Assembly (NCBI GenBank): GCA_044226015.1 | Contig: JBGAHS010000001.1 | Coordinates: forward strand, 320,001 to 384,000 | Reading direction: 5' to 3' | From: Candidatus Obscuribacteraceae bacterium | GTDB taxonomy: Bacteria; Cyanobacteriota; Vampirovibrionia; Obscuribacterales; Obscuribacteraceae | DNA: 64,000 bases | In this document: positions 23,117 through 43,782 of the stretch, piece by piece | Numbering within the stretch: the stretch's first letter is position 1 | How the letters are laid out: the number at the start of each line of letters is the position of its first letter | The notes under the pieces: model-generated | Database searches by the model: none | Told to the model about the DNA's origin: nothing | What the model saw: only the letters and a program-made list of their open reading frames with translations | Position numbers and translations under genes: made by a program

Positions 23117-23207
23117 GGATGATTCTCTATCACTAGTCAATCTTGCGATCTTGCCAGAAGAATCGTCTAGAAAAATACGAAGTCAGATTTTGCTGGACAA
23201 TGTCGAC

Positions 23208-23237
23208 AAAAAGGGCGGTTCGAAAACCGCCCGAAAA
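23208..23237. terminator. Hairpin between convergent genes (T tract on the minus strand)
   Basis: AAAAA-GGGCGGTT/AACCGCCC. Confidence 0.6.
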
Positions 23238-23288
23238 GTCTCGGTGAATAATTTTTCCCGCTTGCTCAGCGAATGTGCCCGTTGGTTT

Positions 23289-23582: not shown

Positions 23583-23782
23583 AATGCAAATCCCTTTTGT
23601 TCTTAACCTTGACCCTATTGTAATGTTGAAAAGGGTTTTCTGCCTATTCTTGAAAACTTTCCAATCTACCAGTAGTCGGCTTTTTCGAGGTTCTGCTTTG
23701 GACAAAATGCAGTGTTTTTACTGGAGTCTTCTGCCTGAAGGTCTTGATAAACTTGCTGCTATTGGAAGCTGGGAGTTATGAA

Positions 23783-25564: not shown

Positions 25565-25580
25565 ACGCAGATCCCTTAAG

Positions 25581-26249
25581 CTATTTGATGAAGTACATCT
25601 TGTTTGGTAGCTTTTCACAGTCTTCGGCATGCCCGCCAGCAAGATCGGAATATTGATCGCCAATTGAAACTACGATCTTAAATCCCATATCCTCTATCTG
25701 TTTTCGAAAATTAGTTTTCATAACAGTCGCTGGACTGCTGTCATTGTCTGGTCTCATATAAAGTCCGTCATATGAAATGCCAGCGCCAATCAAATTATTA
25801 ATGGTTGAGCGACGGTCACTTTCATTCCTTCCGGTAATAAAGAAAATTGCAAACCCGTTCTTTCGAGCCCAGCTAAGAAATTCAGCGGTAGGCTTAAGAG
25901 GAGTGTCCTTTTCAGAGTCCAGCCATTTGTCCCAATCGGCCCAACCAGATTGTGGGTGTGCTTTGAAGTAAGCGCTATTGTCCAGGCAGGTTTCGTCGAT
26001 ATCGGATACGATTGCCAGATTTTTCTCACCCTTGTGTTTTTCACAAACCTTTCTTGCAGAAGCAACTGCGGCAGAAAACTCCTTCTTATACTCTGGAGTC
26101 TTCATGTACTTTAGCCCGTCTTCAATCGTGAATGTGTTTGGCTGCTCAGGCACTTTTACATCCGAGCATGGGCAAGCTATCGTTGCCGCAGCAATAAGAT
26201 TGCTCGCGATTACAGCGATACTAAATGCGGTGCTGAGAGACTTCATCAC
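25581..26249 (-). CDS. Secreted HAD-family acid phosphatase (class IIIB)
   Basis: DIDET, ITGR, K, IGDQYSDL, KLPNKMY motifs; signal peptide. Confidence 0.93.
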   Translation of the reverse strand: MMKSLSTAFSIAVIASNLIAAATIACPCSDVKVPEQPNTFTIEDGLKYMKTPEYKKEFSAAVASARKVCEKHKGEKNLAIVSDIDETCLDNSAYFKAHPQSGWADWDKWLDSEKDTPLKPTAEFLSWARKNGFAIFFITGRNESDRRSTINNLIGAGISYDGLYMRPDNDSSPATVMKTNFRKQIEDMGFKIVVSIGDQYSDLAGGHAEDCEKLPNKMYFIK

Positions 26250-26287
26250 TAATCTCCATCGTCAGAATTGAGGAGATTATTGTACTG

Positions 26288-26953
26288 CTATTTCTTTTTT
26301 TTCGCCGAGCGATGTGTAAGAACGTCGAACTTATTATCTTTGCTATTCCAAACGATTGAAATGACTGATTTCTCGGACTGTCCAGCTCCAGTCTCATTTA
26401 TTACCGAAGGTCCACCAATCTGGGTGACATTGACATTTGAGCGTTGTGCGCGACCGCCAGTATCAATCATTAGAGCTTTACTATCCTTATCCCACCGGGT
26501 TGAGACGATATTTGTGGCGTTTGGCAAAAGTTCATGCAAAAGCACTTTTTGCTTGCCATCGTCGTCAGCAGTTGTGATTAGAATATAGAACTCCTTGCCA
26601 AGCATCATTTTAGGGTTGTCTTTTTCCAGGATGACGGCTTCATCCGTCCGCCCGTCTCCATTGAAATCACCGCTGAAGAGGCGTCCATCCTTATATATTT
26701 CCAGCTTTTCTTTGTGCCAGAGATCGATGCAGACCTGGTCTAAGCCGCAAAGCCGTTCCGAGCCGTCGCCATTTAAGGGGTCTAGCATTGCCTTGTAGAG
26801 GTCAAAGTCAAAGACCTTTTCTTGAGCCTGGCTAGCGCCAGCGCCGGAAGGGCTCGGTGAAGCAGCTTCCTCGGCATAGCTTCTGCCGCAGGTAATCAGC
26901 GCCAACATTGCGACGCTCAGGCTGATGGATTTTGCGAGTCTCATAGTAAACAT
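26288..26953 (-). CDS. Exported hypothetical protein with an FG-GAP-like DxDxDG motif
   Basis: Signal peptide; GDFNGDGRTDEAV. Confidence 0.7.
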   Translation of the reverse strand: MFTMRLAKSISLSVAMLALITCGRSYAEEAASPSPSGAGASQAQEKVFDFDLYKAMLDPLNGDGSERLCGLDQVCIDLWHKEKLEIYKDGRLFSGDFNGDGRTDEAVILEKDNPKMMLGKEFYILITTADDDGKQKVLLHELLPNATNIVSTRWDKDSKALMIDTGGRAQRSNVNVTQIGGPSVINETGAGQSEKSVISIVWNSKDNKFDVLTHRSAKKKK

Positions 26954-27102
26954 CCGATAAGGTCCACAATATCAATTTTACAGAAAACCTTCGATTGCGG
27001 TAGCATCCATGACCAAAGTTGGATTGACATCATGACTATGAGAGAATTAAGCTGAGTTAAAGACTCTTTTGAGTCATTTGCACCATTGGTGGTATCAAAA
27101 AA

Positions 27103-28455
27103 ATGGATCAGAAGGCGGCGCACGGCAGTGATAAATGGGAGGAGTTGAAAGAGGCTCGAGCCACACTGCAAGCGTTTCTCAATCATCCTCAGTATAGAAA
27201 AACTCAGCGAATCGTTTTTGCTGTCTGTATAATTTGGGCTGCTTGCATTGTCGCGCAAAGTATTCCCTATTACATTTATATCCAGGAAGGTAAGAAGGCT
27301 GCGCTTTCTGGAAAGTTCGAGCAAGCTGAAGAGTTGTTCAATTCTGCTCTGAGTGAATCTAAGAATGACGATCCTACAGATCCCCGCCTGGCAAACGCTT
27401 TGAACAATCTTGGTGAACTCTATCGAAAGCGCGGTCAGTTCTCTAAAGCTGAACCGGTCTATAAGCAGCTTGCAGCTCTTGTCGAAAAGTTGGATAAAAA
27501 GAAGCAAGAACAAGTGATTGGCTTGAACAATATCGCGGCTTTCTACAGAGACAAAGGTGACTTTCAAAAAGCACAGTCCTTGCTTTCAAGAGCGAAAGAT
27601 ATTTGGGAGTCTTCAGTCAAAAAGATGAAGGACCCGAATTATGCCGCAGTGCTTGCGTCTCTGGGAAGGGTCTACAAAGAGCAGGGGCGATACTCAGAAT
27701 CTGAGCAGCTCTACAAGCAAGCCGTGGAAATAAGAGAAGCAGCTCAGGGCAAAAATCATGTCGATGTAGCTTCAGTGCTAGTAAGCCTCTCTGGGCTTTA
27801 CAGGAAAGAAGCGAAGTATGCTGAGGCAGAGCAAATTCTTGTGCGTGCCTTTCAAATTGATTCCGCTGAGCTGGGATTGCAGCATCCAGACACTGCCGCC
27901 GATGAAGCTGCTCTTGCTGGACTTTATCGCGAAACTCACAGGTACAAAGAAGCTGAACCTCTCTATGTGCAGTCGTTAAATACCCGTCGATTGCTACTCG
28001 GAGACAATCCGCAGACTGCAAAGAGTTTGCTCGGTCTGGGCGAGTTATACAAAGAAGAGAAGAAATTTGCGCTGGCGGAAAAGTTTGTACTGGAAGCACT
28101 TCAAATGGACAAAACCGTTTTTGGTAGTGATAAGCACCCCGACTGCGCCGATTGCTACAACTCGCTTAGCCAGATTTATCTTGCAGAGGGCAAGCGGGCT
28201 CAGGCTGAGCAAAGCATTGAACGTTGTTTGCAGCTGCGAAATGAGTTCTTGCCGCCCACGCACCCTGATATTGCAGAGTCATTGTTCAATAAGGCTGAGA
28301 TTCTGCGCGCTGATGGCAAGATTTCTGAAGCCGCGACCTGCTATGTCGATGCCGAGCGAATACAGGAAAAAGTCCTCGGAAAGGACCACCCGGCTTATCG
28401 CTGCACGATTCAGGCTCTTGAGCTTGTTCACGGCAATCAAAAGCGCCCCGGGTAA
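27103..28455 (+). CDS. Membrane-anchored TPR protein (42-aa kinesin-light-chain-type repeats)
   Basis: One TM segment, then repeats such as LANALNNLGELY and HPDTA, HPDIA. Confidence 0.9.
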   Translation: MDQKAAHGSDKWEELKEARATLQAFLNHPQYRKTQRIVFAVCIIWAACIVAQSIPYYIYIQEGKKAALSGKFEQAEELFNSALSESKNDDPTDPRLANALNNLGELYRKRGQFSKAEPVYKQLAALVEKLDKKKQEQVIGLNNIAAFYRDKGDFQKAQSLLSRAKDIWESSVKKMKDPNYAAVLASLGRVYKEQGRYSESEQLYKQAVEIREAAQGKNHVDVASVLVSLSGLYRKEAKYAEAEQILVRAFQIDSAELGLQHPDTAADEAALAGLYRETHRYKEAEPLYVQSLNTRRLLLGDNPQTAKSLLGLGELYKEEKKFALAEKFVLEALQMDKTVFGSDKHPDCADCYNSLSQIYLAEGKRAQAEQSIERCLQLRNEFLPPTHPDIAESLFNKAEILRADGKISEAATCYVDAERIQEKVLGKDHPAYRCTIQALELVHGNQKRPG

Positions 28456-28549
28456 AGAAGTTCCTCTTAATATATGCTTAGAACGGTCATTTCGGGCTGA
28501 AAAGGTCTTATGATCTCCTTTTGGAATGGCTTTCAACAGGACAGAACGC

Positions 28550-29629
28550 ATGTTTGGCAAGAAAAAAGGCGAAAAGGTTACCCAAGAGCAGGTATTGGCA
28601 GCTCTTTCGAAGGTGATGGACCCCGATTTGCATACGGACATCGTCACGCTCGGAATGATTTCCGACATTGCCATTAATGGAAGCAAAGTACACTTCAAGC
28701 TTACGCTGACAACACCAGCTTGTCCGGTGAAAGAAAAGCTCGAACAGGAAGCTAAAGAATCAGTGGCTGCTATTCCTGGTGTTGAAGAAGTGACAATGGA
28801 ATCAACAGCAACTGTCTCTTCACGCGGGAAGGTTGCAGGCAGAGAAGATGTGCCTGGCATCAGCCAAATCATAGCTGTGACATCGGGCAAGGGTGGCGTT
28901 GGAAAAACCACTGTTTCTATCAATCTTGCTGTAGCCCTTTCCAAGCTCGGCGCAAAAGTTGGCTTGTTGGATGCTGATATTACCGGTCCTAACGCACCGC
29001 TGATGCTTGGTGTCGGAGGGTATGAACCAACAACCCATGATAATAAGATTGTTCCGGCTGAGAATTTTGGGGTTAAGTGCATCTCGATGGCATTTTTTGT
29101 TTCGAGTGACACTCCTGTCATTTGGCGCGGACCAATGCTTGATAAAGCAATCAGACAATTTTTGAGAGATGTTGATTGGGGTGAACTCGATTATCTCGTG
29201 GTGGACATGCCTCCGGGCACTGGTGACGCTCAATTGACGATGTGCCAGGCTACTAATCTTGCTGGCGGTCTGGTTGTGACGACACCACAGGGAGTGGCAT
29301 GCTTGGACGCTCGAAAGGGTGTAGCGATGTTCCAGCAGATGCATGTGCCAGTTCTCGGAATGGTAGAGAACATGAGCTATTTCCTCAGCCCGCAAGGTGA
29401 GCGACTTGATATTTTTGGACATGGTGGTGGCAAGGCTCTGGCTGAAGAGTTGGAAATTCCATTCATTGGTGAAATTCCGCTGGAAACGGCAGTTCGTGTT
29501 GGTGGTGACACTGGCGCACCGATAGCCGCTACAGACCCAGACTCCGCTGCATCACAAGCGTTTCTCGAAATCGCTAAGAAGCTAGCTGCTCAAGTAAGTA
29601 TTCAGGCAATGCAGCCTGTTACTTGTTAG
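28550..29629 (+). CDS. apbC: Mrp/NBP35 Fe-S carrier ATPase
   Basis: TTPACP domain, SGKGGVGKTT, WRGPM, DMPPGTGD, ENMS. Confidence 0.95.
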   Translation: MFGKKKGEKVTQEQVLAALSKVMDPDLHTDIVTLGMISDIAINGSKVHFKLTLTTPACPVKEKLEQEAKESVAAIPGVEEVTMESTATVSSRGKVAGREDVPGISQIIAVTSGKGGVGKTTVSINLAVALSKLGAKVGLLDADITGPNAPLMLGVGGYEPTTHDNKIVPAENFGVKCISMAFFVSSDTPVIWRGPMLDKAIRQFLRDVDWGELDYLVVDMPPGTGDAQLTMCQATNLAGGLVVTTPQGVACLDARKGVAMFQQMHVPVLGMVENMSYFLSPQGERLDIFGHGGGKALAEELEIPFIGEIPLETAVRVGGDTGAPIAATDPDSAASQAFLEIAKKLAAQVSIQAMQPVTC

Positions 29630-29684
29630 GCGAACGATCTGTCTTAAGGACTAAGTCCTTTTGAATATTGCAGTCATATTGAGT

Positions 29685-29860
29685 GAAACTTCGCAGTTCA
29701 GCTCACATTTGTTGCGATCCCGACTTGGGTTCCCGCTGCGAGCTTGAGGGACCGAGTTGCGATCCAGAGCTGGCTTACCGGTAGTTGGGAGCCACGCCAA
29801 CCGAACTGTGGCAAGGGATGAAAACTCGGAAAGCTGTCTCAGCAGCTGAACTCGTGTTTT
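29685..29860 (+). ncRNA. ssrS: Probable 6S RNA (cyanobacterial type)
   Basis: About 176 nt; closing stem AGTTCAGCT/AGCTGAACT, internal bubble, CCGAGTT/AACTCGG stem, branched apex; GATCCCGACTTG and CCACGCCAACCGAACTGTGGC resemble cyanobacterial 6S as I recall it; strand less certain. Confidence 0.65.
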
Positions 29861-29873
29861 GAGTTTATTTTCT

Positions 29874-32800
29874 CTACGCTCTGTTGCTTTTGGCGGAGTT
29901 CTGCGCTTGGAGCAAAATGGAAATTTTATTGCCAGTTTCATTTGAGAAAATGACGAACTTTCCATCGTGACTTTCGATTATGCGAAATGCCAGAGTCAAT
30001 AGCAGCCAGGCATTTGCTTCGGCTGCTGGGGCGCTGCTAATAGCTGTGGCGCTGTCTCGGTCAAGCAGGCTTGCTCTTTGCTCTGCGCTCAGTGGAGCTG
30101 CATCGTCTCGCAGGGTTACTGAAATTCCTTCGGGCAGCTTTTGTATTGTTAGCTTTTGTCTTCGTGCCTTGCGAGCAGCGCTGAAAGCTATAATTCCACT
30201 TACAGCTCGAGTAAGTCTTTCTGGGTCTGCCTCAACCGAATTAGATGCTGCGTTTTCAATGTTTTCTATTTGAATTTGGCGACCCGATTGCTCAACTGCT
30301 TTCTTCAGCATATCTTTCAGCACGACGGTCTCTTTTGAGAGCTGCATCTTGCCTGCTTCAATTTTGTCAATATCCAGGAGGTCATTGATCAAGTCGATCA
30401 GTCTTCCGCAGTTTTGGCTGGCGTCTTGCAAGAATGGCTTGTCTTCCTCTGGAACGGGACCCACTGCTCCAACAGAAATGAGGTCGATTGCGCCCAAAAT
30501 CGATGTTAGCGGTGTTCTCAAATCATGACTGACCATGGCCAGGAATTCTTTCTTCATACCTTCTAGTTGTTTGCGCGCTGTTATATCGTGAGCTACGCAA
30601 AACAAGAAGGGCTCGCCTTCTTTTTTCGCAATGCTCCATAAAGTGTTGACTTCTTTTCCGTTTGCGTGGCGCACTCTGCTTTCGAAATTGGCATGGGGAG
30701 TCTGATTCTCTTCCGAAAAAGCTTTTCGTGTAGTTTCAATGTCTTCGGCGTTGGTAAGCGAAAAAAGGTCTTTCTCTTTGAGGTCATCTTTGCTATAGCC
30801 CCAGATTTTTTCGCAAGCCGGGTTGAAACTAAGCCACTTGCCACTCGGCTCCATAACACAGATTGCGTCTTGAGAGTTATCAAAAATAGAGCGTTCTTTT
30901 CTTCTGGCTTCTGCAAGAATGTTTGCGCTCTGGTGAAAGGATTGATCAAGCTTCGCGATTTCATCTGAACCTTCTAGAACAGCGTTAAGTTCTTTATCGT
31001 TGGCTAGTCTGTTTGCATTATCAACTAAAACCATTAATCGAGAATTGATATCTTTACTGAAAAATACTACGAGCAAAAGCGAAGCTAGTATATTTGTGGC
31101 GAACCCTGTGAGCAAGACTCCTTCTTGCAAACGTCGCAGTTCAAGCTGTTTCGCGGGGCTTGATGATTCGCGGTGCTCGACCTGTACTGCCATTTTTTCC
31201 AGGCTGTGAAAAAATGTGATGGATGCTGCGATGCCACCACTTCTTTTCATTGTCCCAAGTGTTCGCGTCATCTCGGGGCTGGCACCCGGTGGCATAGGTG
31301 TGCCACCTTCCTCCGAATCATCACTTTGGCTTGGGGCTTCAACTGCTTCGACCTCGTCAACTCTTCGGCGGTGACGGCGACGGTGACGCTTGTTTCTATC
31401 TTGTGGCAGGCTGAAGAAGTTCTCTTTCTCGGCTAACTTTTTATCAACAATTTGCTCACATTTTGTTAGCACAGGGTCGTCTCTTACCAGCTCTTTTAGC
31501 TCGGTTTCAGCAACTCTTGCTCGTATCAAGTCTTCCTTGGCTATAAGAAGGTTTTGCTGTTTGCCGGAACCGTAAAGGCGTGAGAGTCGAACCTGCGCAT
31601 CGGAGGTATTGGATAAAATGATGAATGCTTTGATTGAAATCATGCGATTGTGCGCTTGTTGTAATCTCTCGTTTTCAACTTGCCAGAATAAATACGCCAG
31701 GCTTCCGGCAAGCACGATTTCACACAAAATTGGCACGCTGACAAGCAGCATGCCCTTTCCTGTTAATCCAATCTTGCTGAAGGGTGACTGCTTAACTGTT
31801 CCTTTTGCAGAATTTAGTTTGGCCGATTCGCGCAGAGACGGCTTTAAAGATGCTGCTGTTATAGATTTGGATTTTGGGCGAGCGACAAGTTTATTTGTTT
31901 GGTTATCGTAAAGGGGAATGGTGAACCAAAAGGTAGAACCTTTACCGTCACTTTCGACATCTATAGTGCCACCATGTTTTTCAATAATTGTTTTGCAAAT
32001 AGGTAGTCCTAGTCCCGTTCCTGCAGAGCGCTTTCCATCAGCGACTTCTGTCTGCGAGAATCGTTCGAAGATTTTTCCGCGTTGTTCTTCTGGAATTCCT
32101 CGACCCTGATCTTGCACAGAGCACTTTATGTATTCTCCGTCTATTTGAGAGCTTATGAGAATTGTCGAACCTTCCGGAGAAAATTTGATTGCGTTGGAGA
32201 TGAGGTTTACGAGAACCTGCACGATTCTGTTGGGATCTACCATCCATCGCATATTTGCTGAGTTGACTTTTAGTTCAATTCGCTTCTTTTGAGCAAGGCT
32301 TTCTACATCTTGAGCAGCTCGCCTGATCACGTCGTCAACGGTGGACTCAATCTTCTTTACTTGAATATCTGCTGTGTTGCTAGCGTTTAGTTCAAACAGT
32401 TCATCGACCAGAGAGACCAGGCGCTCAAGATTGCTGCTGGCTGAGTTCAAACGCTTTGCCGCTTTCTCTGAGAGACGACTTGGCTGGCGTTTTACAATCG
32501 CTTGCAACGAGTTGGAAATTGAATGGAGCGGCGCCATTAGATTAGAGCTAATCATTGATAGAAATCGCTGCTTAGATTTCTCGATTTGCTTGGCTTCAGT
32601 TTGATCTTGCGCGACGCCGAATAATCGTTGATCAGAATCAGACCAACTAACTGACCAGCGCATTTCGCGCTCTTTTCCATCTTTTGTAAGAACGGGCGCT
32701 TCGAAAATAACTGACTCTTGCTGAGTCAACGCTCTGTCCAATGATTCTCTGATAGTGGTGTCGTTGCTGGTGGCTATTTCCTGTAGGCGTCTTCCCTGAA

Positions 32801-33698
32801 GCTCATCCGCATCGTATCCCCACAGGGTTTTGCTTGAGGGATTTATTTTTGTTATTCGCCCTTCTCTGTCGCAAGCAAAAATGATTTCGCTTGCATTCTC
32901 AAATAAAAGCCTTTCCCGATCGGACGCAGCTACGAGCTGTCTGTGCATATGATGAATTGCGTTGTCCACAAGTGCAATTTCGTCACCATATTCGAGTACC
33001 GGATGCATTCGCTTTCCCCGAGAAAGCGCAAATGCATTCTCCGAAATTTGATTGACGCGATCCACAATGCTGCGGCGGAAATAGAAGAGCAAAGCCATTC
33101 CCGCGATAATGTTGGCTAGCAATCCTAGTGCCAGCACGATTTGCTCTGCCAGGTGAATTTCGCTTTGATGTCTGCGGATGTCGTCGGTTAACTGGTTTGC
33201 TACAGCGCAGAGCTCCTGAAGGCGGCTTGGCTTGTCCCCAATCATTTCATCCATCTCTGTCAGGCGCGCTTGAATCTCATCCATGTGCTCAAGGGCATTA
33301 CCCCTTCTGGCGATGTCAGCGAGGCTGTCAACCTTCTCCAGAATGCTTGTATGTTGCTGCCACTCTGAGTCGTCGCGATCGACCTCGGGAATTTTTTTCC
33401 AGAGTTCGCGCGCTTCTTTGAATAAATCGAGGGTTTGTTGTCGTTTGCGCTCATACGTTTCTAGCAGGACAGGCGAGTTGAACTGCAACGAGGCCATAGC
33501 TAGTAAGGGAAGCTGAGCTGTGATACTCATGAGGCGCAATCCAAGGTTTGCCCCTTGTCTGTGTATTGTTTCCTGCTCTCTTTGCTTCTCGGAGATCTCG
33601 AGCAGAATTCCAAGACCGCCGATGAAAGCAGTGCTGATCAAAAGTGGAACTCCGACCAGCACCAAGCCCTTCTGGAAAACTTTTAGTTTGACAGCCAT
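29874..33698 (-). CDS. Internally duplicated sensor histidine kinase, 2x (TM-sensor-TM-HAMP-PAS-DHp-CA)
   Basis: Two colinear modules: module 1 has ISSNLMAPL plus intact N/G1/F/G2 boxes; module 2 has VSHDLRTPL plus a degenerate ATPase. Confidence 0.9.
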   Translation of the reverse strand: MAVKLKVFQKGLVLVGVPLLISTAFIGGLGILLEISEKQREQETIHRQGANLGLRLMSITAQLPLLAMASLQFNSPVLLETYERKRQQTLDLFKEARELWKKIPEVDRDDSEWQQHTSILEKVDSLADIARRGNALEHMDEIQARLTEMDEMIGDKPSRLQELCAVANQLTDDIRRHQSEIHLAEQIVLALGLLANIIAGMALLFYFRRSIVDRVNQISENAFALSRGKRMHPVLEYGDEIALVDNAIHHMHRQLVAASDRERLLFENASEIIFACDREGRITKINPSSKTLWGYDADELQGRRLQEIATSNDTTIRESLDRALTQQESVIFEAPVLTKDGKEREMRWSVSWSDSDQRLFGVAQDQTEAKQIEKSKQRFLSMISSNLMAPLHSISNSLQAIVKRQPSRLSEKAAKRLNSASSNLERLVSLVDELFELNASNTADIQVKKIESTVDDVIRRAAQDVESLAQKKRIELKVNSANMRWMVDPNRIVQVLVNLISNAIKFSPEGSTILISSQIDGEYIKCSVQDQGRGIPEEQRGKIFERFSQTEVADGKRSAGTGLGLPICKTIIEKHGGTIDVESDGKGSTFWFTIPLYDNQTNKLVARPKSKSITAASLKPSLRESAKLNSAKGTVKQSPFSKIGLTGKGMLLVSVPILCEIVLAGSLAYLFWQVENERLQQAHNRMISIKAFIILSNTSDAQVRLSRLYGSGKQQNLLIAKEDLIRARVAETELKELVRDDPVLTKCEQIVDKKLAEKENFFSLPQDRNKRHRRRHRRRVDEVEAVEAPSQSDDSEEGGTPMPPGASPEMTRTLGTMKRSGGIAASITFFHSLEKMAVQVEHRESSSPAKQLELRRLQEGVLLTGFATNILASLLLVVFFSKDINSRLMVLVDNANRLANDKELNAVLEGSDEIAKLDQSFHQSANILAEARRKERSIFDNSQDAICVMEPSGKWLSFNPACEKIWGYSKDDLKEKDLFSLTNAEDIETTRKAFSEENQTPHANFESRVRHANGKEVNTLWSIAKKEGEPFLFCVAHDITARKQLEGMKKEFLAMVSHDLRTPLTSILGAIDLISVGAVGPVPEEDKPFLQDASQNCGRLIDLINDLLDIDKIEAGKMQLSKETVVLKDMLKKAVEQSGRQIQIENIENAASNSVEADPERLTRAVSGIIAFSAARKARRQKLTIQKLPEGISVTLRDDAAPLSAEQRASLLDRDSATAISSAPAAEANAWLLLTLAFRIIESHDGKFVIFSNETGNKISILLQAQNSAKSNRA

Positions 33699-33773
33699 GC
33701 CATGTATATACCCGGCGGATGGCTAAAACTGCGGTCGCCGAAGATTACTTGATAGACAGGGCTTTTGAGGATT

Positions 33774-34907
33774 TTAATTTGCTTTGAGGATCTTGTAGAC
33801 ATCGCGGAAAACCACACTGGCATTTATTTCAGCGCTTGAGGAAAAAACTATAATTCCCAGCTTACGTTTCGGTGAAAATCCGACATAGCTGCTTGTGCCA
33901 TTAAGCATTCCGTTCTTTCCATAAACGTCGAGCGCGTCGTCTCGAAGCCATGCGATGCAGCTAGTCGATTGCCCAGCCTTCGTTTTTGCTCGTCTTTTGC
34001 ACATTTCTATTATGTTCTCCGCAATTCTTCTTGATGCTGCAGGTGTCGCGGTATTTGATGGCGTGAACTTGATAATGCAATCAAGCAGTTTGTACATATC
34101 TTCCGTGGTTGATTTAAGTCCACCGGCTGCGCCCCCAGAGAAGGGAGCATTTTGCAGCTCTGCTCCATTTTCATCGTGTCCGACTGCTAGTCTGCTTACG
34201 GCTTCGGGTGCAATGCGCAATTTAGTTTCGTTCAAACCAAGTGGTTCCAGTATTTTTTCTTTGAGAAACTGCTCGTAAGTTTCCTGACTGACAGATTCAA
34301 TTATCTCCCCAATCAGGCGATAGCCGACATTGCTATAGCTATACTTTTCGCCAGGCAAAAACTCCAGTTTGCAGTTTGCCAGAAATTGATGGAACTGCTC
34401 AATTCCGTATTTCTCGCGATTGTTCATGTTATCTGGATTAGCTGGCAGCCCTGATGTATGTGTCGCAAGCTGGAAAACTGTAATTAGCTTGCCATTTTTT
34501 TGAGGCAAGCTCACAGTCTTTGGTAATAGTTTTTCCGCATTATCGTTGAAAGATAGTTTGTTCTCTCGCCAGAGTTCTGTAAGCAATATGCCTGTGAAAA
34601 CTTTGGTAATTGAAGCAATTTCGAAAATTGTTTTTTCGTCCGGCCTGACTACGCTTGCTCCTTTTATCGTGCCTATGCATACAGTTTTGTGTTGCTCACC
34701 ATTTGTGATGCCGATCACCAGTGCGCCTTTTTTATTCCGGCTTACAGTAGACGCAAGTTTTTCAACTTGTTTTACTAGCGATTCATCTATGCTTTTCTTT
34801 TGTGCCATCGCGCGGCAACTAAAATGAAAGGCAGCTATGAGCATCGCGCATGCAACAAGGCACTTTATTTTTAAGGAGAGGCGATTCTGAAAGCGAATTG
34901 AAAGCAT
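33774..34907 (-). CDS. Serine hydrolase, beta-lactamase (AmpC-like) family
   Basis: FEIASITK (SxxK), LATHTSGLP, YSYSN, KNG. Confidence 0.92.
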   Translation of the reverse strand: MLSIRFQNRLSLKIKCLVACAMLIAAFHFSCRAMAQKKSIDESLVKQVEKLASTVSRNKKGALVIGITNGEQHKTVCIGTIKGASVVRPDEKTIFEIASITKVFTGILLTELWRENKLSFNDNAEKLLPKTVSLPQKNGKLITVFQLATHTSGLPANPDNMNNREKYGIEQFHQFLANCKLEFLPGEKYSYSNVGYRLIGEIIESVSQETYEQFLKEKILEPLGLNETKLRIAPEAVSRLAVGHDENGAELQNAPFSGGAAGGLKSTTEDMYKLLDCIIKFTPSNTATPAASRRIAENIIEMCKRRAKTKAGQSTSCIAWLRDDALDVYGKNGMLNGTSSYVGFSPKRKLGIIVFSSSAEINASVVFRDVYKILKAN

Positions 34908-35027
34908 CGAAGGGTAGGCTCAATCTTAAGGAGAAGATTTCTCTTTTCGGGCTTGCTGACAACGTCGGCGATGTATAATTGTCCGGACATTTCGGGTAAT
35001 GATTTCATATTTTAGCGGAGCATTCCA

Positions 35028-35930
35028 ATGAAAATACTGGCGGCGGTTGACACTACCAAGCACTCTCAGAATGCTCTCAAATGCTTGAAGGGGCTAAACC
35101 TTAATCAAGATAGTGAAGTCAAGCTTGTCAAAGTTAGGAAGGGCGACCCCGGCAAAGGTGAAGCAGAGTCATACCTGCAGAAACTAACCGAGCAGTTAAA
35201 GAATGAACTCAACTGTAGTGTAAGTTACGAGGTTTTAGAGGGAGATCCCAAAAACAAGATTGTTGAAGCAATCAAAAGCTTCACAGCCGACCTTGCACTG
35301 TTGGGAACCCGTGGTCATAAGGGCATGGAATTGATGCTCTTAGGGAGCGTTTCGCAAGGCGTGTTGATGCAATCTCCTTGCCCTGTTCTCATAGTGAAAA
35401 ACAATGATGAGGACGAGTCGGGCTTGGGAAGTTTCCAGCGCATCATTCTAGCTGCAGATAATTCTGATTACTCGCAAGCTGCGTTGAATTGGCTCAAGAG
35501 ATTCAAGTGGAATGCGGATGCCTCGTTCAAAATTATTACTGTGATTCCGCATCTTTTTGAAAGCTTCGAAGATGAACACACTACCAGTATGACCAGCATT
35601 TTGGATCAGCAGCAAAGATTGCGTGAAGCTGCTGAGCGGCAACTGGAGTCTATGGCACGTTCTCTGGAGTCTCATTGTGGCTCTGAAGTGAGCATTGAAA
35701 TCACAGAAGGTGATCCCCGCGAAGAGGTTCTTCGTAGCGCCTCTGCTTGGAATGCCGATCTGATCGTAATGGGCTCTCATGGACGCACTGGACTTACCAA
35801 GCTCTTGTTGGGCAGCGTATCGCAGGCTGTTGCTCTTCATTCCGATTGCGCCGTAGCTATCGTTCGTGGGTTGGTGCAAAAGTCTAAAGTGATGCAGCAG
35901 ACAGGACGCTTCATCAAGCCTGGTAAGTAA
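35028..35930 (+). CDS. Tandem-domain universal stress protein
   Basis: Two USP domains with GTRG...LGSVS and GSHGRTG...LGSVS. Confidence 0.95.
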   Translation: MKILAAVDTTKHSQNALKCLKGLNLNQDSEVKLVKVRKGDPGKGEAESYLQKLTEQLKNELNCSVSYEVLEGDPKNKIVEAIKSFTADLALLGTRGHKGMELMLLGSVSQGVLMQSPCPVLIVKNNDEDESGLGSFQRIILAADNSDYSQAALNWLKRFKWNADASFKIITVIPHLFESFEDEHTTSMTSILDQQQRLREAAERQLESMARSLESHCGSEVSIEITEGDPREEVLRSASAWNADLIVMGSHGRTGLTKLLLGSVSQAVALHSDCAVAIVRGLVQKSKVMQQTGRFIKPGK

Positions 35931-36032
35931 AGCAAGATCGTCCCTTACTCGCGAAGAGATTTAAAATACGAAACCCCGCTTGTGGCAGGGTTCCGTAAAG
36001 GGTAAAGGCTTGGGTTCGTTTGTAGTAATAGA

Positions 36033-36095
36033 TTAGCCGAATGGGTTTAGATTCAAAATGTAGAAGAGAGCAATCTTGCTTGCATAAATCTGCAC
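36033..36095 (-). CDS. 20-aa peptide, element copy 1 (MQIYASKIALFYILNLNPFG, GTG start)
   Basis: AAGGGTG SD-like sequence upstream; ORF length conserved across all five copies. Confidence 0.5.
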   Translation of the reverse strand: MQIYASKIALFYILNLNPFG

Positions 36096-36308
36096 GGTAT
36101 ACACCCTTTGAAAAAAACAGATTGCCTGGCGCTGCATTGCAGCAGGCTCTCGTTCCGTTTGATGTTTCGATTGCTTTTATTAGCGGCTAGCACTGCTTAG
36201 AAGAATTCGATCCCCTCGGTACACTCTATTAAAGCTTTAAAATACGAAACCCCGCTTGTGGCAGGGTTTCGTAAAGGGTAAAGGCTTGGGTTCGTTTGTA
36301 GAAGTAGA

Positions 36309-36371
36309 TTAGCCGAATGGGTTTAGATTCAAAATGTAGAAGAGAGCAATCTTGCTTGCATAAATCTGCAC
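36309..36371 (-). CDS. 20-aa peptide, element copy 2 (identical to copy 1)
   Basis: Same sequence and context as copy 1. Confidence 0.5.
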   Translation of the reverse strand: MQIYASKIALFYILNLNPFG

Positions 36372-36595
36372 GGTATACACCCTTTGAAAAAAAAAACAGA
36401 TTGCCTGGCGCTGCGCAGGCACATTACAGCAGGCTCTCGTTCCGTTTGATGTTTCGATTGCTTTTGTTAGCGGCTAGCGCTGATTAGAAGAATTCGATTT
36501 CTTCGGTACACTCTATTGAAGCTTTAAAATACGAAACCCCGCTTGTGGCAGGGTTCCGTAAAGGGTAAAGGCTTGGGTTCGTTTGTAGTAATAGG

Positions 36596-36658
36596 TTAGC
36601 TGAATGGGTTTGGATTCAAAATGTAGAAGAGAGCAAACTTGCTTGCATAAATCTGCAT
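36596..36658 (-). CDS. 20-aa peptide, element copy 3 (MQIYASKFALFYILNPNPFS)
   Basis: ATG at the position equivalent to the other copies; TAA just before the conserved core. Confidence 0.5.
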   Translation of the reverse strand: MQIYASKFALFYILNPNPFS

Positions 36659-36722
36659 CATGGGCCAGTCAGAATACAAAGTAGCTGTACTTCTATGATA
36701 TGCTGGCAGTGCTAGTTGCTGG

Positions 36723-37022
36723 ATGCTGAGCGCAATGTCGTCACCTGGATATTCTGCTTTGACCGATTGGTACCTCGCGCGGCTGCGAATTGCTGCGCAG
36801 GAAATGAAAGACGCAAACTTAACTCCACGAACTCTGTTGGAAGCTGATTTCGATCTCATCAGAAAGTTAGTTCAAAGTCGCGCCGAAATTCAAGATAAGC
36901 AATATGAACAGATTGTAGCCAGGTTCAGAGCGGAAAATCGCTTGATGTGGATAGCAGAGCTGGTGATATATCTTGTCGGATTTCTTGGAACCGTGGTTTT
37001 TTGTGTTCTGTATTTGATTTGA
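36723..37022 (+). CDS. Small hypothetical protein with a C-terminal TM helix (possibly a fragment)
   Basis: 99-aa ORF ending in a hydrophobic helix; start uncertain. Confidence 0.4.
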   Translation: MLSAMSSPGYSALTDWYLARLRIAAQEMKDANLTPRTLLEADFDLIRKLVQSRAEIQDKQYEQIVARFRAENRLMWIAELVIYLVGFLGTVVFCVLYLI

Positions 37023-37026
37023 ATTT

Positions 37027-38436
37027 TTAGTCTGTTTGTAGATCTTCGTTTTTGACACGTTTGAGATTGAACGAAAATGCTGCACCGCCCGTGGTTGCGT
37101 CTTCGACCCAGATTTTTCCGCCTTGAAGTTCTATGAGTTGTCGACATATGTATAGTCCCAGTCCTGTCCCTGTGATCACATGGTTAGAGCCCACATCTTC
37201 GGATTTGAATCTCTCAAAGATACTCTTCTTCCTTGCGTCGGGCACCCCAGGTCCTTCGTCCGTGATCGTAATAGTCACAGTCTCTGCTAACACATTTTCT
37301 GTTACAACAACGGCAGAGTTGCTGGGCGAGAACTTAATCGCATTTGATATCAGGTTTGAGAAAATGTGCGATAGGTGCCCAAAGTCTGCCAGCACTATTG
37401 TTGAAGATTCTGGAAACACCACTCGAATTTGTTTTAGAGCAGCAAAATTGGAAAGCATTGTGTTGCATTGTTCATACAAATCTGTAAGAGGAATGTACTC
37501 AAATGATGCCTGCTGGTCTCCTCCTTCCAGCTTTTCAGCTTCGAGCAGCTGATTTATCATTGCCAGGATGTTTTCGGTTCCCAATTTTGCTTTAGTAATT
37601 TCTGCTTGCATCTTTTCTGGAAGTTCTCCATAGAGTCCTTTTGATAAGGATTCCATGAAGTAGCTGATGCCTGTTATGGGAGCGCGAAGGTCGTGCGTTA
37701 CCATCGCAGCAACTTCTGCTTTTAGACGCTGGTTTTGCTTCCGTTCGCTAATATCTTTGCAAAGGCAGAAATAGCAACTTAAATTGTTTGACCATTCCGA
37801 TTGAATCTCGAGGTCAATGAGTTTGGCATGTGCAGATTTTGCGCGAACTTCTAAGGTCTTTTTGTTGTCGCCTTCTTTCACTGTCTTAAAAAAGTTGAGG
37901 AATGTGGTTGAGTCCTCTTCAGCTATTATTGAGCGCGCCGGTGTACCGAGCAATGAAGCGACACTGTAACCAAGCAAACTTTCAGCTCTCAAATTGGCTT
38001 CAATGATCTTTATTTCTTCATTGAGGCATAAGAGCAGGTCCGAGCTGTAATCTGCGATCAATCTCTCGCGTTGTCTGGCGAGTTCCAGTTCTTGAACAAT
38101 ATTTTTACTGACTTCTTCCAGATTCATGTCCTCTGATTTTTCTTTGAGTTGAGCTAACAGTTTCGCCTTCGCTTCAAGTTGGGGTTCTAGAATTTCCTTT
38201 TGAAGGATTCTTGCCGTTCGGGCACAAAGAAAAGTGAGTAGCAGCCAGCTAGCAATGCATAGTAGTGTCACCCCCAGCTGTTTGTCTGAGTTTGTGGGTG
38301 CTAACTGCAGGTTTAAAGACAGAAGGGACACAAATCCAAGCAACATTATTGCAATCAACAGCAAAAGAGGATTCTTCACAAACTTACTCGCCTCGGAATG
38401 ATTCAAGTATAGTGGACATTGATGTTCCTTGAACAA
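37027..38436 (-). CDS. PAS sensor histidine kinase
   Basis: 2 TM, PAS, VTHDLRAP, NLISNAIKFS, DEGPG, GTGLGL. Confidence 0.93.
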   Translation of the reverse strand: MFKEHQCPLYLNHSEASKFVKNPLLLLIAIMLLGFVSLLSLNLQLAPTNSDKQLGVTLLCIASWLLLTFLCARTARILQKEILEPQLEAKAKLLAQLKEKSEDMNLEEVSKNIVQELELARQRERLIADYSSDLLLCLNEEIKIIEANLRAESLLGYSVASLLGTPARSIIAEEDSTTFLNFFKTVKEGDNKKTLEVRAKSAHAKLIDLEIQSEWSNNLSCYFCLCKDISERKQNQRLKAEVAAMVTHDLRAPITGISYFMESLSKGLYGELPEKMQAEITKAKLGTENILAMINQLLEAEKLEGGDQQASFEYIPLTDLYEQCNTMLSNFAALKQIRVVFPESSTIVLADFGHLSHIFSNLISNAIKFSPSNSAVVVTENVLAETVTITITDEGPGVPDARKKSIFERFKSEDVGSNHVITGTGLGLYICRQLIELQGGKIWVEDATTGGAAFSFNLKRVKNEDLQTD

Positions 38437-38499
38437 GTTAGAAAATTGAATACCAGCTAAGGCTGATTATCATAATTCTTATGACTCTGGTGCATAATT

Positions 38500-39186
38500 T
38501 TGGCAAAAATAATTCTCGTTGAAGACGAACAGTTCATTGCTAACAGTGTCAAAAACTGGTTGGAGAATGAAAATCACACAGTCGATGTTGTAAGCAATGG
38601 CGACGATGGACTTTATCGTTTGTTGAATTATTCATACGATTTGGCGATTCTAGATTGGCAACTCCCCGGCATGCAAGGTGCCGATATTTGTCGTGAACTA
38701 CGTGCAAAACAATACGAGATTCCAATATTGATGCTGACGTCGAGATCTAGCCTGCCTGACCGATTGGAAGGCATAGAAAGTGGAGCCTTCGACTACATGG
38801 TGAAGCCCGCGTCACTGGAGGAATTGAGTGCGCGGGTAAGGGCACTTCTTCGAAGAATAACTCCTCCAGAACTTGCAAGTGTGATTGTCGCGAATCTCGA
38901 ATTGAAGAAGGAGTCGCATGAAGCATTTGTAAACAACGAAAAGCTAGCGCTCTCCCCTATAGAGTTTCAACTTCTGGAATTGTTTTGTGAAAATCTTGAT
39001 AGAACCATCACTGCCGACAGTATTGTAAGAAAATTATGGGCTGGAAAAGAAACTCAATCCAGGCAACACTTACGTGTGCATATGACACATTTACGGCAAA
39101 AGCTGAAGTCAGCCCAGTGCCAGCTTGTAATAGTCAGCCCCAGTGGTGGTGGCTATTTGGCGCAAAAACAGAGCGAGTCAGGCTAG
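38500..39186 (+). CDS. OmpR-family response regulator
   Basis: LVEDE, LDWQLPG, KP, winged-helix C-terminus; divergent from the kinase gene. Confidence 0.93.
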   Translation: MAKIILVEDEQFIANSVKNWLENENHTVDVVSNGDDGLYRLLNYSYDLAILDWQLPGMQGADICRELRAKQYEIPILMLTSRSSLPDRLEGIESGAFDYMVKPASLEELSARVRALLRRITPPELASVIVANLELKKESHEAFVNNEKLALSPIEFQLLELFCENLDRTITADSIVRKLWAGKETQSRQHLRVHMTHLRQKLKSAQCQLVIVSPSGGGYLAQKQSESG

Positions 39187-40961
39187 TTAGATTTGCCAGT
39201 GAGTTTCTTTTCAATAGCAACCAATTGGGCTCTGGCAGCTTTTCTTGCTGAAATAAATTCTTCCTTGTCAGCCTCTGTTAGCTCAAGTACCTGTTTGTAA
39301 GAGTCCTGCGCACCTTTTAGGTCATTACACTCCATCTGGCAGAAACCCAAGTTTGTATAATTGGAGGTTAGTGCCCGGCTGAGGTTCAATCTCGCTTCCT
39401 TCTCCGCGTAAGATCTTCCCATCGAACCGCCAAAGTATTGGATCGCTCCTTGGTAATTGCTGCCATCTGTACGCAGAATGTTGATGCTGCGATTGAAGAA
39501 TGGTCTTGCTTCATCATAGTGTTTCATTAGCATCTCAGTGTCTGCTGCCGATTCAAGTGCTCCTAATAAAGCCAGTCTTCGTTGACCATTCGACTTCTCT
39601 GTGAGGGCGATTACTTTCTCGTACACTTTCATTGCCTCGGGCAGTTTATTTTGAAATCGATAGTTGCTTGCCAGGGACAAAAGCAGGCTTTCGTCTGTAG
39701 TTAAGTTCAGTTTCTCGAAATCATTGGACGCATGAGCTAGTTCTCGCAGTTTGAGAGCTCTAATGCGCAGTGGTACGGCGGCTTTGTAGTTTTGAACATC
39801 GTCATATATCTGGGCAAGATCTTCCAGCGGTGAGATGAGATAGGGGCTGTTGCCGCCATATCTTTTTTCTTTCATTGCAAGAATTCTCTTTTGAGCTTCG
39901 ATGCTTGAAAGCTTTATTTTTTTTCCGTGGTCTTGCGGAATCGAATCTCTGTGCACTGCCTTTTCGGGCATCAATTTTAAGCGAAAAAGCATCGTCATCG
40001 ATGTAATTGCAAGAAGGAATACAAACGGTACGGACTGAAGAAAAATGCTCTTATTGGTTCTCGTGGTGAACTTCTTGTTCCAGCTAGTGCAACGGCGTGG
40101 CAGTATTTTATGGAGATCGAGATTACCTTTTATTGCTTCCGTTATCTCATCGCAGCGGGAGAATCGGTCCTCTGATTCCTTTTGAATGCACCTCAAGATA
40201 ATCGCCTTAAATAAAGAATCTTTTGTGTGATTTGTTAACCGAAATTCTGGTTCGGAGGGGAAAAGATTTTGGTGGAAATAGAATGATGTTAGTGGTGTTT
40301 CCGATTCGAAGTTGGACTTTCCACTTAGAAGTTCCATCATGATGTAACCAAAAGCATAAATATCCCAACTGGCATCAACATTCGGCAGTGAAAGAATTTG
40401 TTGGGGGCTCATATATCGATAATTTCCGACCAGAGCCCCAGTCCTTGTAAGTTTCTGAATTTCAGGGTCAAGAAGTTTAGCAAGCCCGAAATCTATCAAA
40501 CGAACGCGAAAGCCGTCAGCATCTTTTTGCAAGTAAATATTAGATGGACTCAAATCGCGATGAATAATTCCACAACTATGTAGATATGTGAGCGCCTTCA
40601 ACGATTGCAGCAAAATAGATTCAGCAAGTTCTAAATCCAGCGGCTCTTGCCGAATCAACTTACTGAGAGCTTGTCCCTCCAGGTGCTCCATAACCAGAAA
40701 TGGCGTGCTTTCGTCAAAAAAATCCATTGTGTAAATTGACACGATGTTCGGATGTGAAAGTTGAGCAAGAATTTGAGCTTCTCGTTTATATCGGTCAATA
40801 TCAGATATATCAATTAACTTCAGTAGCTTGATTGCTACTTTTCGGTTGAGCTTCTCGTCAACGGCCGTATAAACGTAGGCGAATCCGCCCTCACCGATAA
40901 AATCGACAATGCGATAGTGGCTACCAATTACGGTACCTGGCGTTAGTTTAACGAGGCTCAT
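39183..40961 (-). CDS. Hanks-type Ser/Thr kinase with TM and C-terminal TPRs
   Basis: GEGGFA, VAIK, HRDLSPSN, DFG, YMSPQQ; TM segment; TPR repeats. Confidence 0.92.
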   Translation of the reverse strand: MSLVKLTPGTVIGSHYRIVDFIGEGGFAYVYTAVDEKLNRKVAIKLLKLIDISDIDRYKREAQILAQLSHPNIVSIYTMDFFDESTPFLVMEHLEGQALSKLIRQEPLDLELAESILLQSLKALTYLHSCGIIHRDLSPSNIYLQKDADGFRVRLIDFGLAKLLDPEIQKLTRTGALVGNYRYMSPQQILSLPNVDASWDIYAFGYIMMELLSGKSNFESETPLTSFYFHQNLFPSEPEFRLTNHTKDSLFKAIILRCIQKESEDRFSRCDEITEAIKGNLDLHKILPRRCTSWNKKFTTRTNKSIFLQSVPFVFLLAITSMTMLFRLKLMPEKAVHRDSIPQDHGKKIKLSSIEAQKRILAMKEKRYGGNSPYLISPLEDLAQIYDDVQNYKAAVPLRIRALKLRELAHASNDFEKLNLTTDESLLLSLASNYRFQNKLPEAMKVYEKVIALTEKSNGQRRLALLGALESAADTEMLMKHYDEARPFFNRSINILRTDGSNYQGAIQYFGGSMGRSYAEKEARLNLSRALTSNYTNLGFCQMECNDLKGAQDSYKQVLELTEADKEEFISARKAARAQLVAIEKKLTGKSN

Positions 40962-41273
40962 CGATGCTTCACAGGCTTGTGAATGATCTATTCCCTGTTT
41001 TGGATTTTCGTTAGCGCAGATCTTCATAGGACCCTTTGAACACCCTTTCAAACACTAAAGCAGACCGCGGGTTGGTCTGCTTTGTGCGGAGTTTGATGCT
41101 CTTTCATCTTATTCAAGGGGCATTAATTTTTTGTGGCATGAGTGCACACGTGATTTCACGATTTCCTTCCACAATTTATTAATCCCCGAAGTTGTTCAAT
41201 TCCAACAGTTCGACATCCCCATTTGAAGGCAACAAAGGGCGTTTGCATTTCTCTATAATTAAGGAGTCTTCGC

Positions 41274-43372
41274 ATGGACAGACACTCACCCCGGGACAAT
41301 GAAACGCAATCGCACGAGGTTTCTGGTGCAAGCAAGGAATTCCCATCACAAGTTCGTGGTGAACTACACAATGCTGCTTATGAAGGGGCGATCAAAAATC
41401 TAAAGTGGCGTCCCCAAAATGACCCTGCTAATAAGGTTTTGAGTACACTTTCCTTTATTGATAAATCAGCGATTGTGGCAAAGGAGGGCGGCGCTGCGCT
41501 GAAAGATTCTGTTGTTGATTCTATTGTGGGCGTTCATAACATACATCTTGGTAAAGATGTTGATTTGCCTGTACCTAAGGCACTGGAGACAGTGGCTGCA
41601 GGTGCTGCAATTGGTTTCGCCTCTCGCACACTGCTTCCTCAGCTAGGTGTATTTGGTAAGTTGGGCAATGCTGCGTTGGCAGTGGCTCTTACTGCTCCGG
41701 TGGCAAAGCAGGCTTTTGATGCAGCCAATGAATTCAAGCATGCCAGAATGGAAAATGACCTTCGACATGCTTCACATGAAATGGGCGCAGTAGTTGGTAG
41801 TCTTGCAGCAAGCACACCCCTTGGTATTGCAGGCTTTAGAGCTGGTACTTTAGCTGCTGATCGCGTTCTAGTTTTGCCTTCAATGGCTGAATTCAATTCC
41901 AGCAAGGCTCAAAAATTCGATGCTGTGAATGATTGGATGCGTGAAAGAATAAATGATGGTGCGGCACATGCAAAAAATTTCGCTGTAGGTGAGAGCCGAT
42001 ATCCGGGCTCTCATGGCGTCGCTGAACAGTTCCCGCAAATTACCGATTCCTTGCGCAATGGAATTAAGGGGACTGATTACGCTTTGCCGACAGTCAAGCT
42101 GTCTGAAAATATAGGAAAGGACGCCCGCGTGTTGGTTGTTACAGGTCATGGTGTTGAGGCACCGGAATTTACTGAAGTCGTGAAAGCCATGAAAGGTGCC
42201 GGTGCTGAGGTTACTGTAGCAACTCCAGATTGGACATGGGATTATCAACCAAAAAATCCTGGTAAAGTCACACTGGCTCAATGGTTAGCGAATGACCACG
42301 TTCTGCAGGGCGATATCTCGGTTTCGAATGCGGCCAAGATGATGAGTGAGGGTAAATTTGATGCGATGTATATTCCAGGCGGCGCTGGAAACACTGCGGC
42401 TATAAGAACAGATTCGGCGATTCAAGCTCTAGTCAGGCAGTCACTTCAACAGAAGCTCGACACATGGACAATCTGTCATGGAGGCCAGGTCTTTGTTAGT
42501 GCTTTAGAGAAAAACTCGGGCATTAAGCTAACCGGTTCTGGCGATATAACTGCTCAAGATTTGCCAAACGCAGGTTTCGTTGTTCCGAAGGATCCTGTTG
42601 TGTTTGACTCGACTCATAAAATACTGAGTGGGAAGGATCCAAGTGTCTTGAACGAATTCATCACCGCCATTGGTGACAGATTCAAGAGTATACAAGAACG
42701 GAAACTTAGTCCGGTAGCAGCTGCTCCTAAGCCGTTCTCAACACCAGTTGAGCTGCTGGCGCAATCAATTGCAGAGCGTCCTCCTGTGCCATCGGCTTCA
42801 GAGCTTCGCTACCCTGGAGCAGCGCCAAGTTATCCTCGTGGTCTTCGAGCCGAGTCCTCTGCTGTTTCGGGATATCCAGAAGGGCTGGACAGTTGGAAGA
42901 GAACGGGACCCCGAGATACCGCCGTTGATACCAGTGCTGCGAAGATTCCACAGGGTGATACCAGATATCCTCAAAATAATCCCAACTATCCAAAAGAATT
43001 AGGTGGACCCGGTGCAGCAGCAGAAGTTCCCGTTCCAGCTGTTTCGGGATATCCAGAAGGGTTGGACAGTTGGAAGAGAACGGGACCCCGAGATACCGCC
43101 GTTGATACCAGTGCTGCGAAGATTCCACAGGGTGATACCAGATATCCTCAAAATAATCCCAACTATCCAAAAGAATTAGGTGGACCCGGTGCAGCAGCAG
43201 AAGTTCCTGTTCCAGCTGTTTCGGGATATCCAGAAGGGTTGGACAGTTGGAAGAGAACGGACCCCGAGATACCGCCGTTGATACCAGTGCTGCGAAGATT
43301 CCACAGGCTGATACCAGATATCCTCAAAATAATCCCAACTATCCAAAAGAATTAGGTGGTCCACGCAAATAG
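41274..43372 (+). CDS. DJ-1/PfpI-family domain fused to a divergent copy of the shared N-terminal domain, with C-terminal 59-aa repeats (1-bp frameshift near 43260)
   Basis: GVEAPEF, FDAMYIPGG, ICHG; the ORF as given stops at 43355, while restoring one G gives ...KELGGPRK-TAG at 43372. Confidence 0.85.
42861..43359 (+). repeat. 177-bp near-perfect tandem repeat (about 2.8 copies)
   Basis: Units start at 42861, 43038 and 43215 (GCTGTTTCGGGATATCCAGAAGGG...). Confidence 0.95.
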
Positions 43373-43429: not shown

Positions 43430-43571
43430 GCCTTCTATGGAACTTTTTCCTTGCCTTAAATGGAGTTCGTGCTGTCTGCTCGGCCGACTTGGTAGAGATT
43501 TAAAATACGAAACCCCGCTTTTGGCAGGGTTACGTAAAGGGTAAAGGCTTGGGTTCGTTTGTAGTAATAGA

Positions 43572-43634
43572 TTAGCTGATTGCTAATGCTATCGAAATGT
43601 AGAAGAGAGCAAAATTGTTTGCATGAATCTGCAT
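43572..43634 (-). CDS. 20-aa peptide, element copy 4 (MQIHANNFALFYISIALAIS)
   Basis: ATG..TAA, 63 bp, homologous to copies 1-3. Confidence 0.5.
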   Translation of the reverse strand: MQIHANNFALFYISIALAIS

Positions 43635-43782
43635 TGGTTTCTTCGTTCCTCAGTTGCTAATGGTTTGTCCTTGAATTTGTGCTGGTCCGGTCGGTTGACT
43701 TGGTAGAGATTTAAAATACGAAACCCCGCTTGTGGCAGGGTTCCGTAAAGGGTAAAGGCTTGGGTTCGTTTGTAGTCTAATA

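Follow-up and report, generated by a model that had tools for sequence, protein, structure and literature searches.

A Gly/Ala-rich helical module at the N-termini of a DJ-1/PfpI protein and other enzymes of Obscuribacterales

The DNA analysed here (the window) is a stretch of 64,000 nucleotides from a Candidatus Obscuribacteraceae bacterium (assembly GCA_044226015.1, contig JBGAHS010000001.1, positions 320,001 to 384,000). At 41274-43355 of its forward strand lies an open reading frame (ORF) encoding, as assembled, a protein of 693 amino acids (aa), in which a helical module shared with three clustered peptidases precedes a DJ-1/PfpI domain. The first-pass annotation ended this ORF at 42720, but the reading frame runs on to 43355 through a Pro-rich linker, which leads from the DJ-1 domain into a 177-bp tandem repeat of 2.8 copies. 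The distance to the peptidase cluster, given there as about 18 kb, measures 18.2 kb (23116 to 41274). The gene and its three clustered paralogues are laid out as follows:

41274-43355 (+): complete ORF with charged N-terminus, Gly/Ala helical module, DJ-1/PfpI domain and Pro-rich repeats
41274-41393 (+): charged N-terminal segment without a Sec-like hydrophobic stretch, a candidate export signal, with a weak copy of the motif A-S-x-[RKA]-L-x-x-E-A at its end (L31)
41454-41984 (+): shared module (family I), residues about 61-237
41532-41576 (+): beta-hairpin insertion, residues 87-101, typical of the module subfamily of the DJ-1 protein
42000-42119 (+): linker kept in all orthologues (GSH, L..G.DY.LP), which may belong to the enzyme fold or a dimer surface
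42126-42671 (+): divergent DJ-1/PfpI domain
42861-43359 (+): 177-bp (59-aa) tandem repeat, 2.8 copies, Pro/Gly-rich
16146-18026 (+): paralogue A, module at 16290-16847, M4 metallopeptidase with intact HEITH
18489-20321 (+): paralogue B, module at 18627-19190, M4 metallopeptidase with intact HEITH
20690-23116 (+): paralogue C, module at 20750-21307, Pro-kumamolisin prodomain and S53 peptidase with E..LD, SGD and GGTS present

The N-terminal similarity between the DJ-1 protein and the three clustered proteins reflects real homology. All five motif pairs on which it was originally proposed are present in the sequence, in the same order and in register; the pair FNSSKAQKFD/FTEAKNGMYD is in register in a MAFFT alignment, and a pairwise alignment to the 16146 protein put a gap there. 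The module consists of roughly 30% Gly plus Ala and its identity to the clustered three is only 21–25%, as would be expected if the similarity were a convergence of composition. However, when the first 260 residues were aligned with each of the three proteins, the Smith-Waterman scores (138, 165 and 152) lay far above those of all controls, which for each pair comprised 1,000 full shuffles (maximum 62–73), 1,000 local 10-residue shuffles (maximum 77–89) and reversed sequences (33–49). Against a profile built solely from the clustered three, the DJ-1 protein scored 58.3 bits (E 1e-15), while 1,000 full and 1,000 local shuffles reached at most 9.5 and 18.5 bits; a profile without any member of its own subfamily gave 54 bits. 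Reversed-proteome decoys also gave no match under E 0.014. Convergent composition is refuted by the alignment and profile shuffle controls, and we regard it as exceedingly improbable.

The Pfam profile PF01965 matches residues 285-466 with 54.2 bits (gathering score 26.6, E 2e-14). The catalytic Glu (GVEAPE) and Cys (ICHG) noted in the first-pass annotation are intact at residues 293-298 and 400-403, with Glu295 at position 42156, Glu298 at 42165 and Cys401 at 42474, followed by His402. E295, E298 and H402 are invariant in 12 of 12 aligned rows and C401 is kept in 11 of the 12; we take the Glu and the nucleophile-elbow Cys to be equivalent to Glu18 and Cys106 of DJ-1. The nearest solved relatives are Arabidopsis DJ-1D (4ofw) and E. 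coli YhbO (1oi4), with a best PDB E-value of 4e-6. With these enzymes and the Pyrococcus PfpI-type enzymes the domain shares the Glu, the Cys-His-Gly elbow and the PGG, but it is divergent and fused to a membrane-like module, and carries PGGAGNT (368-374) in place of the PGGRAPE of PfpI-type enzymes. The acid in that motif is presumably the triad residue of the PfpI protease; it is absent after PGG from this domain and its orthologues, in which the N and T are invariant instead. PfpI-type protease activity is doubtful because this acid is missing; among the activities of the superfamily, which include those of glyoxalases, deglycases and cPGA hydrolases, glyoxalase or metabolite-repair hydrolase chemistry would be favoured. 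The domain lies below all NCBIfam cut-offs, including that of the PfpI/YhbO subfamily TIGR01382 (47.4 versus a curated 139.05), and a phmmer search of the genome, which has low sensitivity, returned no second DJ-1 domain. Ten orthologues keep the combination of module and DJ-1 domain at 39–64% identity; 3 kb upstream of one of them lies a partial second copy of the C-terminal half of DJ-1 (L020:1453-1827).

A single short-read contig is identical to the assembly across 41200-42915, so the fusion of module and DJ-1 domain is real. The last repeat of the assembly lacks one G that is present in contigs of two of four sequencing runs, the place being uncovered in the other two, and the assembled tail is therefore probably erroneous: its terminal 29 residues probably result from an assembly frameshift, with the true stop at 43370-43372 and a protein of about 699 aa. 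A second assembly (P0002) contains a 640-aa form with one repeat fewer and the C-terminus GGPRK. The copy number of the 59-aa Pro/Gly-rich repeat differs between assemblies; the repeat is not common to the orthologues, several of which end in unrelated Pro-rich tails.

An iterative profile search of all six-frame ORFs of the genome found 23 members of family I on 8 contigs, with no reversed decoy under E 0.014; a deeper profile gave 24, and one more was reached via its paralogue. As had been proposed, the module is dispersed and not just a local duplication. Its profile matches 770 sequence clusters at 50% identity. Within the order Obscuribacterales, 16 of 21 other genomes carry it (1–27 copies each), against none of the nine genomes from other orders in the same sample. 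A wider sample of the phylum gave one weak match each in 8 of 300 genomes, and six such distant matches scored 17.8–45.7 bits against shuffle maxima of 8.7–19.3. Some members lie at the same syntenic place in genomes of two families of the order (G009, G010, G012 and G019), next to neighbours that read as fabG-, fabF- and gatA-like. Together with the distant copies, this synteny bears out the suggestion that the module is old. The distant copies (L104-L109) are borne by ABC1 kinases, HEREH-motif proteins and a protein rich in Pro and Lys; the N-termini differ, and one of the proteins matches DUF4781 below cut-off. Another member, of 925–1,070 aa, keeps its synteny in both families of the order (L007, G000:C8:263353-266130 in the genome under study, G000; L089; L091-L093) and has a HExxH-like motif and no Pfam match; it is possibly a core member of family I.

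The module is always N-terminal. Its AlphaFold model (predicted local distance difference test, pLDDT, 84.5) consists of long Gly/Ala-rich helices, predicted at residues 61-85, 102-120, 126-155, 160-199 and 202-237; the sequence is moderately hydrophobic with conserved Gly and other small positions, and the predicted fold is helical and membrane-like. Neither Pfam, PDB nor fold searches matched it, no significant match to family I was found in a viral structure library, and searches of the literature on the order turned up no description of it. We therefore treat it as a new, uncatalogued domain family within a known architectural kind. None of 154 module carriers has a Sec-like signal ahead of the module.

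The first-pass annotation had the module shuffled onto at least three enzyme folds, which understates its range, since the recognisable cargoes span more than 10 Pfam families. A recognisable enzyme is present in 13 of the 23 members of the genome: M4 (two), S53 (six), DJ-1, trypsin, HAD, NADAR-like and PHP, whose match falls slightly short of the cut-off. A scan of 125 of 150 listed homologues, some probably fragments, identified an enzyme family in 36 (S53 16, HD-GYP 6, trypsin 5, NADAR-like 3, DJ-1 2, and M13, S9, PHP and DAO one each) and nothing useful in the remainder. In the module tree, where 11 of 20 inner branches are unresolved, the DJ-1 protein groups (98/97) with two members of unrelated C-termini and not with the clustered three, which shows the shuffling directly. 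The position and the many hydrolase cargoes would fit a general inhibitory or chaperoning prodomain that keeps its cargo inactive until cleavage. This is nevertheless very improbable: the S53 cargoes retain their own prodomain, several members have no recognisable cargo, module-less paralogues exist, and one domain inhibiting ten unrelated folds is implausible.

A constant N-terminus with variable C-terminal enzymes also recalls an interbacterial polymorphic toxin system, in which the module would be a pre-toxin or translocation domain. LXG/PT-TG and prePAAR-TMD proteins are effectors with N-terminal trafficking or membrane domains, and MuF is described as another (PMC5512222). Like these polymorphic toxins and modular effectors, the module proteins combine a constant helical N-terminal domain with interchangeable enzymatic C-termini and no Sec signal, and PT-TG appeared as an Atlas lead at 0.85, under the lead level of 0.9. 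In contrast, the module has no Pfam match, PT-TG, LXG and WXG100 matched none of the 23 members at E up to 1, and the genes are dispersed and vertically inherited. The three neighbours on each side of the 23 loci, by our own ORF calls, in which genes under 60 aa are unseen, are housekeeping genes or lie on the opposite strand; they include no shared downstream family, and no shared small downstream gene that could confer immunity was seen. Digestive and signalling enzymes predominate among the cargoes, where nucleases or deaminases would be usual; no orphan C-terminal cassettes were noticed, and no T6SS or T7SS (type VI or VII secretion system) machine was found. A toxin system is accordingly improbable. 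The module proteins would work like modular effectors, without belonging to the polymorphic toxins or to the substrates of type III (T3SS), T6SS or T7SS machines. In the window, a small inhibitor gene was looked for only beside the two M4 genes, and none was evident there.

Through a motif that precedes the module, three more N-terminal Gly/Ala leader families were found in the genome (e.g. L023-L060), with 19, 9 and 6 members. Families I, II and IV are among its most Gly/Ala-rich N-terminal clusters, and a relation to family I is detectable for family III only. Cargoes of the sister leader families include PLD, patatin, isoamylase, beta-amylase, GGDEF and Macro. Family II is present in 17 of the order's 21 other genomes and in none of nine from others, and genomes with little or no family I have little or no family II either (rho 0.79); 16–19 copies occur even in 2.8-Mb genomes of the sister family. 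The N-terminal motif, A-S-x-[RKA]-L-x-x-E-A after a charged segment, has 79 sites genome-wide. Trained without module proteins and with a threshold score of 8, it exceeds this threshold in 28 of the 154 module carriers, against 3 of 154 shuffled sequences; among the ten orthologues of the DJ-1 protein, six exceed it. Its carriers include module-less giants (5,065, 2,618 and 2,569 aa) and M4/S53 paralogues. The module is missing from nine M4 and five S53 paralogues, most of which start with a charged segment and xxLxxE[AL]. The motif is a candidate export signal, enriched and far from universal. Its presence in about 79 module-less proteins, taken together with the three further leader families, suggests a two-tier design of export signal, membrane module and cargo. 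The genome has 11 M4 and 11 S53 genes, a large expansion, most without a Sec-like signal. Across unrelated cargoes, many family I members have, by eye, a hydrophobic, Pro-flanked short stretch 10–25 residues before their end. A basic C-terminus, which serves as a signal in effectors of type IV secretion, is weakly enriched: the net charge of the last 5 residues was +0.93 versus +0.36 (p 6e-4), a difference that is not significant over 15 residues, and homologues from outside (46) had +0.61.

We give even chances to the reading that the module proteins are exported effector or digestive enzymes, with a non-Sec signal and a membrane-inserting module that holds or carries the cargo at another cell. 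We infer its export, target and machine as follows: (i) the charged N-terminal motif would be the export signal for a non-Sec machine; (ii) an order-wide VirB4/VirD4-type machine would be the leading candidate exporter; (iii) the optional module of about 180 residues would insert into the membrane of another cell; (iv) it would tether or carry the enzyme at that membrane; (v) the target would be a prey or host cell. Two VirB4-like operons, conserved order-wide in chromosomal context, are present in the genome:

G000:C10:63035-71720: VirB4-like, VirD4-like and Replic_Relax operon (L062)
G000:C1:182285-185976: second VirB4 operon (L101), its VirB4 interrupted in this assembly

Small membrane genes and a large gene for a Gly-rich protein accompany each operon. 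VirB4 with a VirD4 coupling protein, our mark of a type IV secretion system (T4SS), was found in G000, and all 22 genomes of the order have a VirB4-like match; PF03135 gave no VirB4 match. PF01580, used for an EssC-type ATPase, gave two weak matches, one of them a VirB4-like gene, which does not indicate a T7SS. Two secretins are present in the genome. Of the order's 22 genomes, 20 have a HerA-like ATPase cassette, which none of nine others has; its large HerA/TrwB-like ATPases (L061, G000:C3:263646-274430), one weakly like NF033849, are 82–95% identical across the family, and the cassette adjoins large low-complexity proteins and is triplicated in two sister-family genomes.

Several results weigh against export to another cell. 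The VirB4 operons and the HerA-like cassette persist in genomes with 0–1 leader match (G001, G011 and G016), so neither is tied to the module; no delivery machine is, and the leader genes are dispersed, mostly not beside these machines. An FlhA/SctV-type export gate was found in 0 of 22 genomes of the order versus 9 of 9 other genomes of the class, and the T6SS or extracellular contractile injection system sheath and VgrG (PF04984, PF05954) are unmatched in G000, which is 92% complete. The motif score of the DJ-1 protein is 6.3, those of paralogues A, B and C are below 0, and only 12 of 59 leader proteins of the genome pass the threshold. Families II and IV have no detectable homology to family I, the copy number of family I rises with genome size as well (rho 0.74), and predation is not shown for Obscuribacterales in the literature found. 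DJ-1, HD-GYP, GGDEF, HAD and receiver domains are typical of cytoplasmic functions, and the one DJ-1 domain that the phmmer search returned is borne by the module.

These cargoes bring in a different reading, which DJ-1, HD-GYP and GGDEF fit as well as export or better. In it the module would be an anchor in the producing cell, a hydrophobic hairpin that directs enzymes either to the inner membrane or to granules storing lipid, polyhydroxyalkanoate or glycogen, whose contents they would turn over. Such an anchor would need no signal peptide or immunity gene and would be consistent with vertical, syntenic inheritance; moreover, two of the distant members outside the order carry ABC1 kinases, which have a membrane and lipid-body role. 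On the other hand, the eight M4/S53 proteases on the module, the 14 without it, and the PLD and patatin of a sister leader family would endanger the cell that makes them, the module is completely lost from the near-complete relatives G001 (91%) and G011 (96%), and the N-terminal motif is common to giant module-less proteins. The anchor is the main alternative to export, and we consider it somewhat unlikely.

Other comparisons concern mainly the sister families. Phage ejection and large polyvalent proteins (P22 gp16, LPD14, LPD22, N4 virion polymerase) likewise have Gly/Ala-rich helical N-termini on cell-delivered proteins, and an N-terminal helical injection region is described in the N4 enzyme (PMC5512222). 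Family II lies near phage LPD and ejection-protein clusters in the Atlas (resemblance 0.87–0.93, by language-model features only); the resemblance is limited to this family, and no virion context was seen. The family II leader model (L027:49-792, pLDDT 85.1) has four Gly-rich helices and repeatedly matches Tim22 and NDUFA11 chains below threshold (Foldseek probability up to 0.82, target template modelling score 0.57, root-mean-square deviation 4.5, E-values 1–5); Tim23 chains are also among its sub-significance matches. None of 17 family II members has a Pfam match to the Tim17 family, which is not known outside eukaryotes. The likeness to Tim17/Tim22/Tim23/NDUFA11 was not seen for family I and is probably an analogy. 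Bacteria are reported to have only a glycine-zipper resemblance to the Tim17 family (PMC5072337). In Vampirovibrio chlorellavorus, of the same class but a different order, hydrolases are proposed to pass into prey via a T4SS, and the available part of the source describes no leader domain (PMC4451040). The VirB4 type of Obscuribacterales differs from that of Vampirovibrio, with 0 of 9 other-order genomes matching at E 1e-10.

A bolder and rather unlikely extension is that Obscuribacterales possess an undescribed export system with its own N-terminal signal and well over 100 substrates per genome, in which interchangeable Gly/Ala helical modules (one Tim22-like) would be self-contained membrane-crossing devices delivering proteases, lipases, starch-degrading and cyclic di-GMP enzymes into prey or host. 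If true, a common, uncultured sister order of cyanobacteria would consist of cryptic predators or parasites. An uncatalogued domain family organises a sizeable enzyme arsenal in this little-studied, non-photosynthetic order of Cyanobacteriota, and module and motif offer a direct route to a candidate substrate list and to a test of enzyme injection, which bears on lifestyle and on the role of the two conserved VirB4 operons. A portable module taking unrelated folds to or across membranes would be a useful tool; an internal anchor would instead be a new bacterial sorting tag.

Elsewhere in the window, the gene directly after the peptidase cluster (23744-25564) encodes a protein of 606 aa that lacks a Pfam match and whose start resembles a signal peptide, and a non-coding 287-bp repeat of 2.5 copies with a palindromic core lies at 35960-36657, with a similar element at about 43500-43750.
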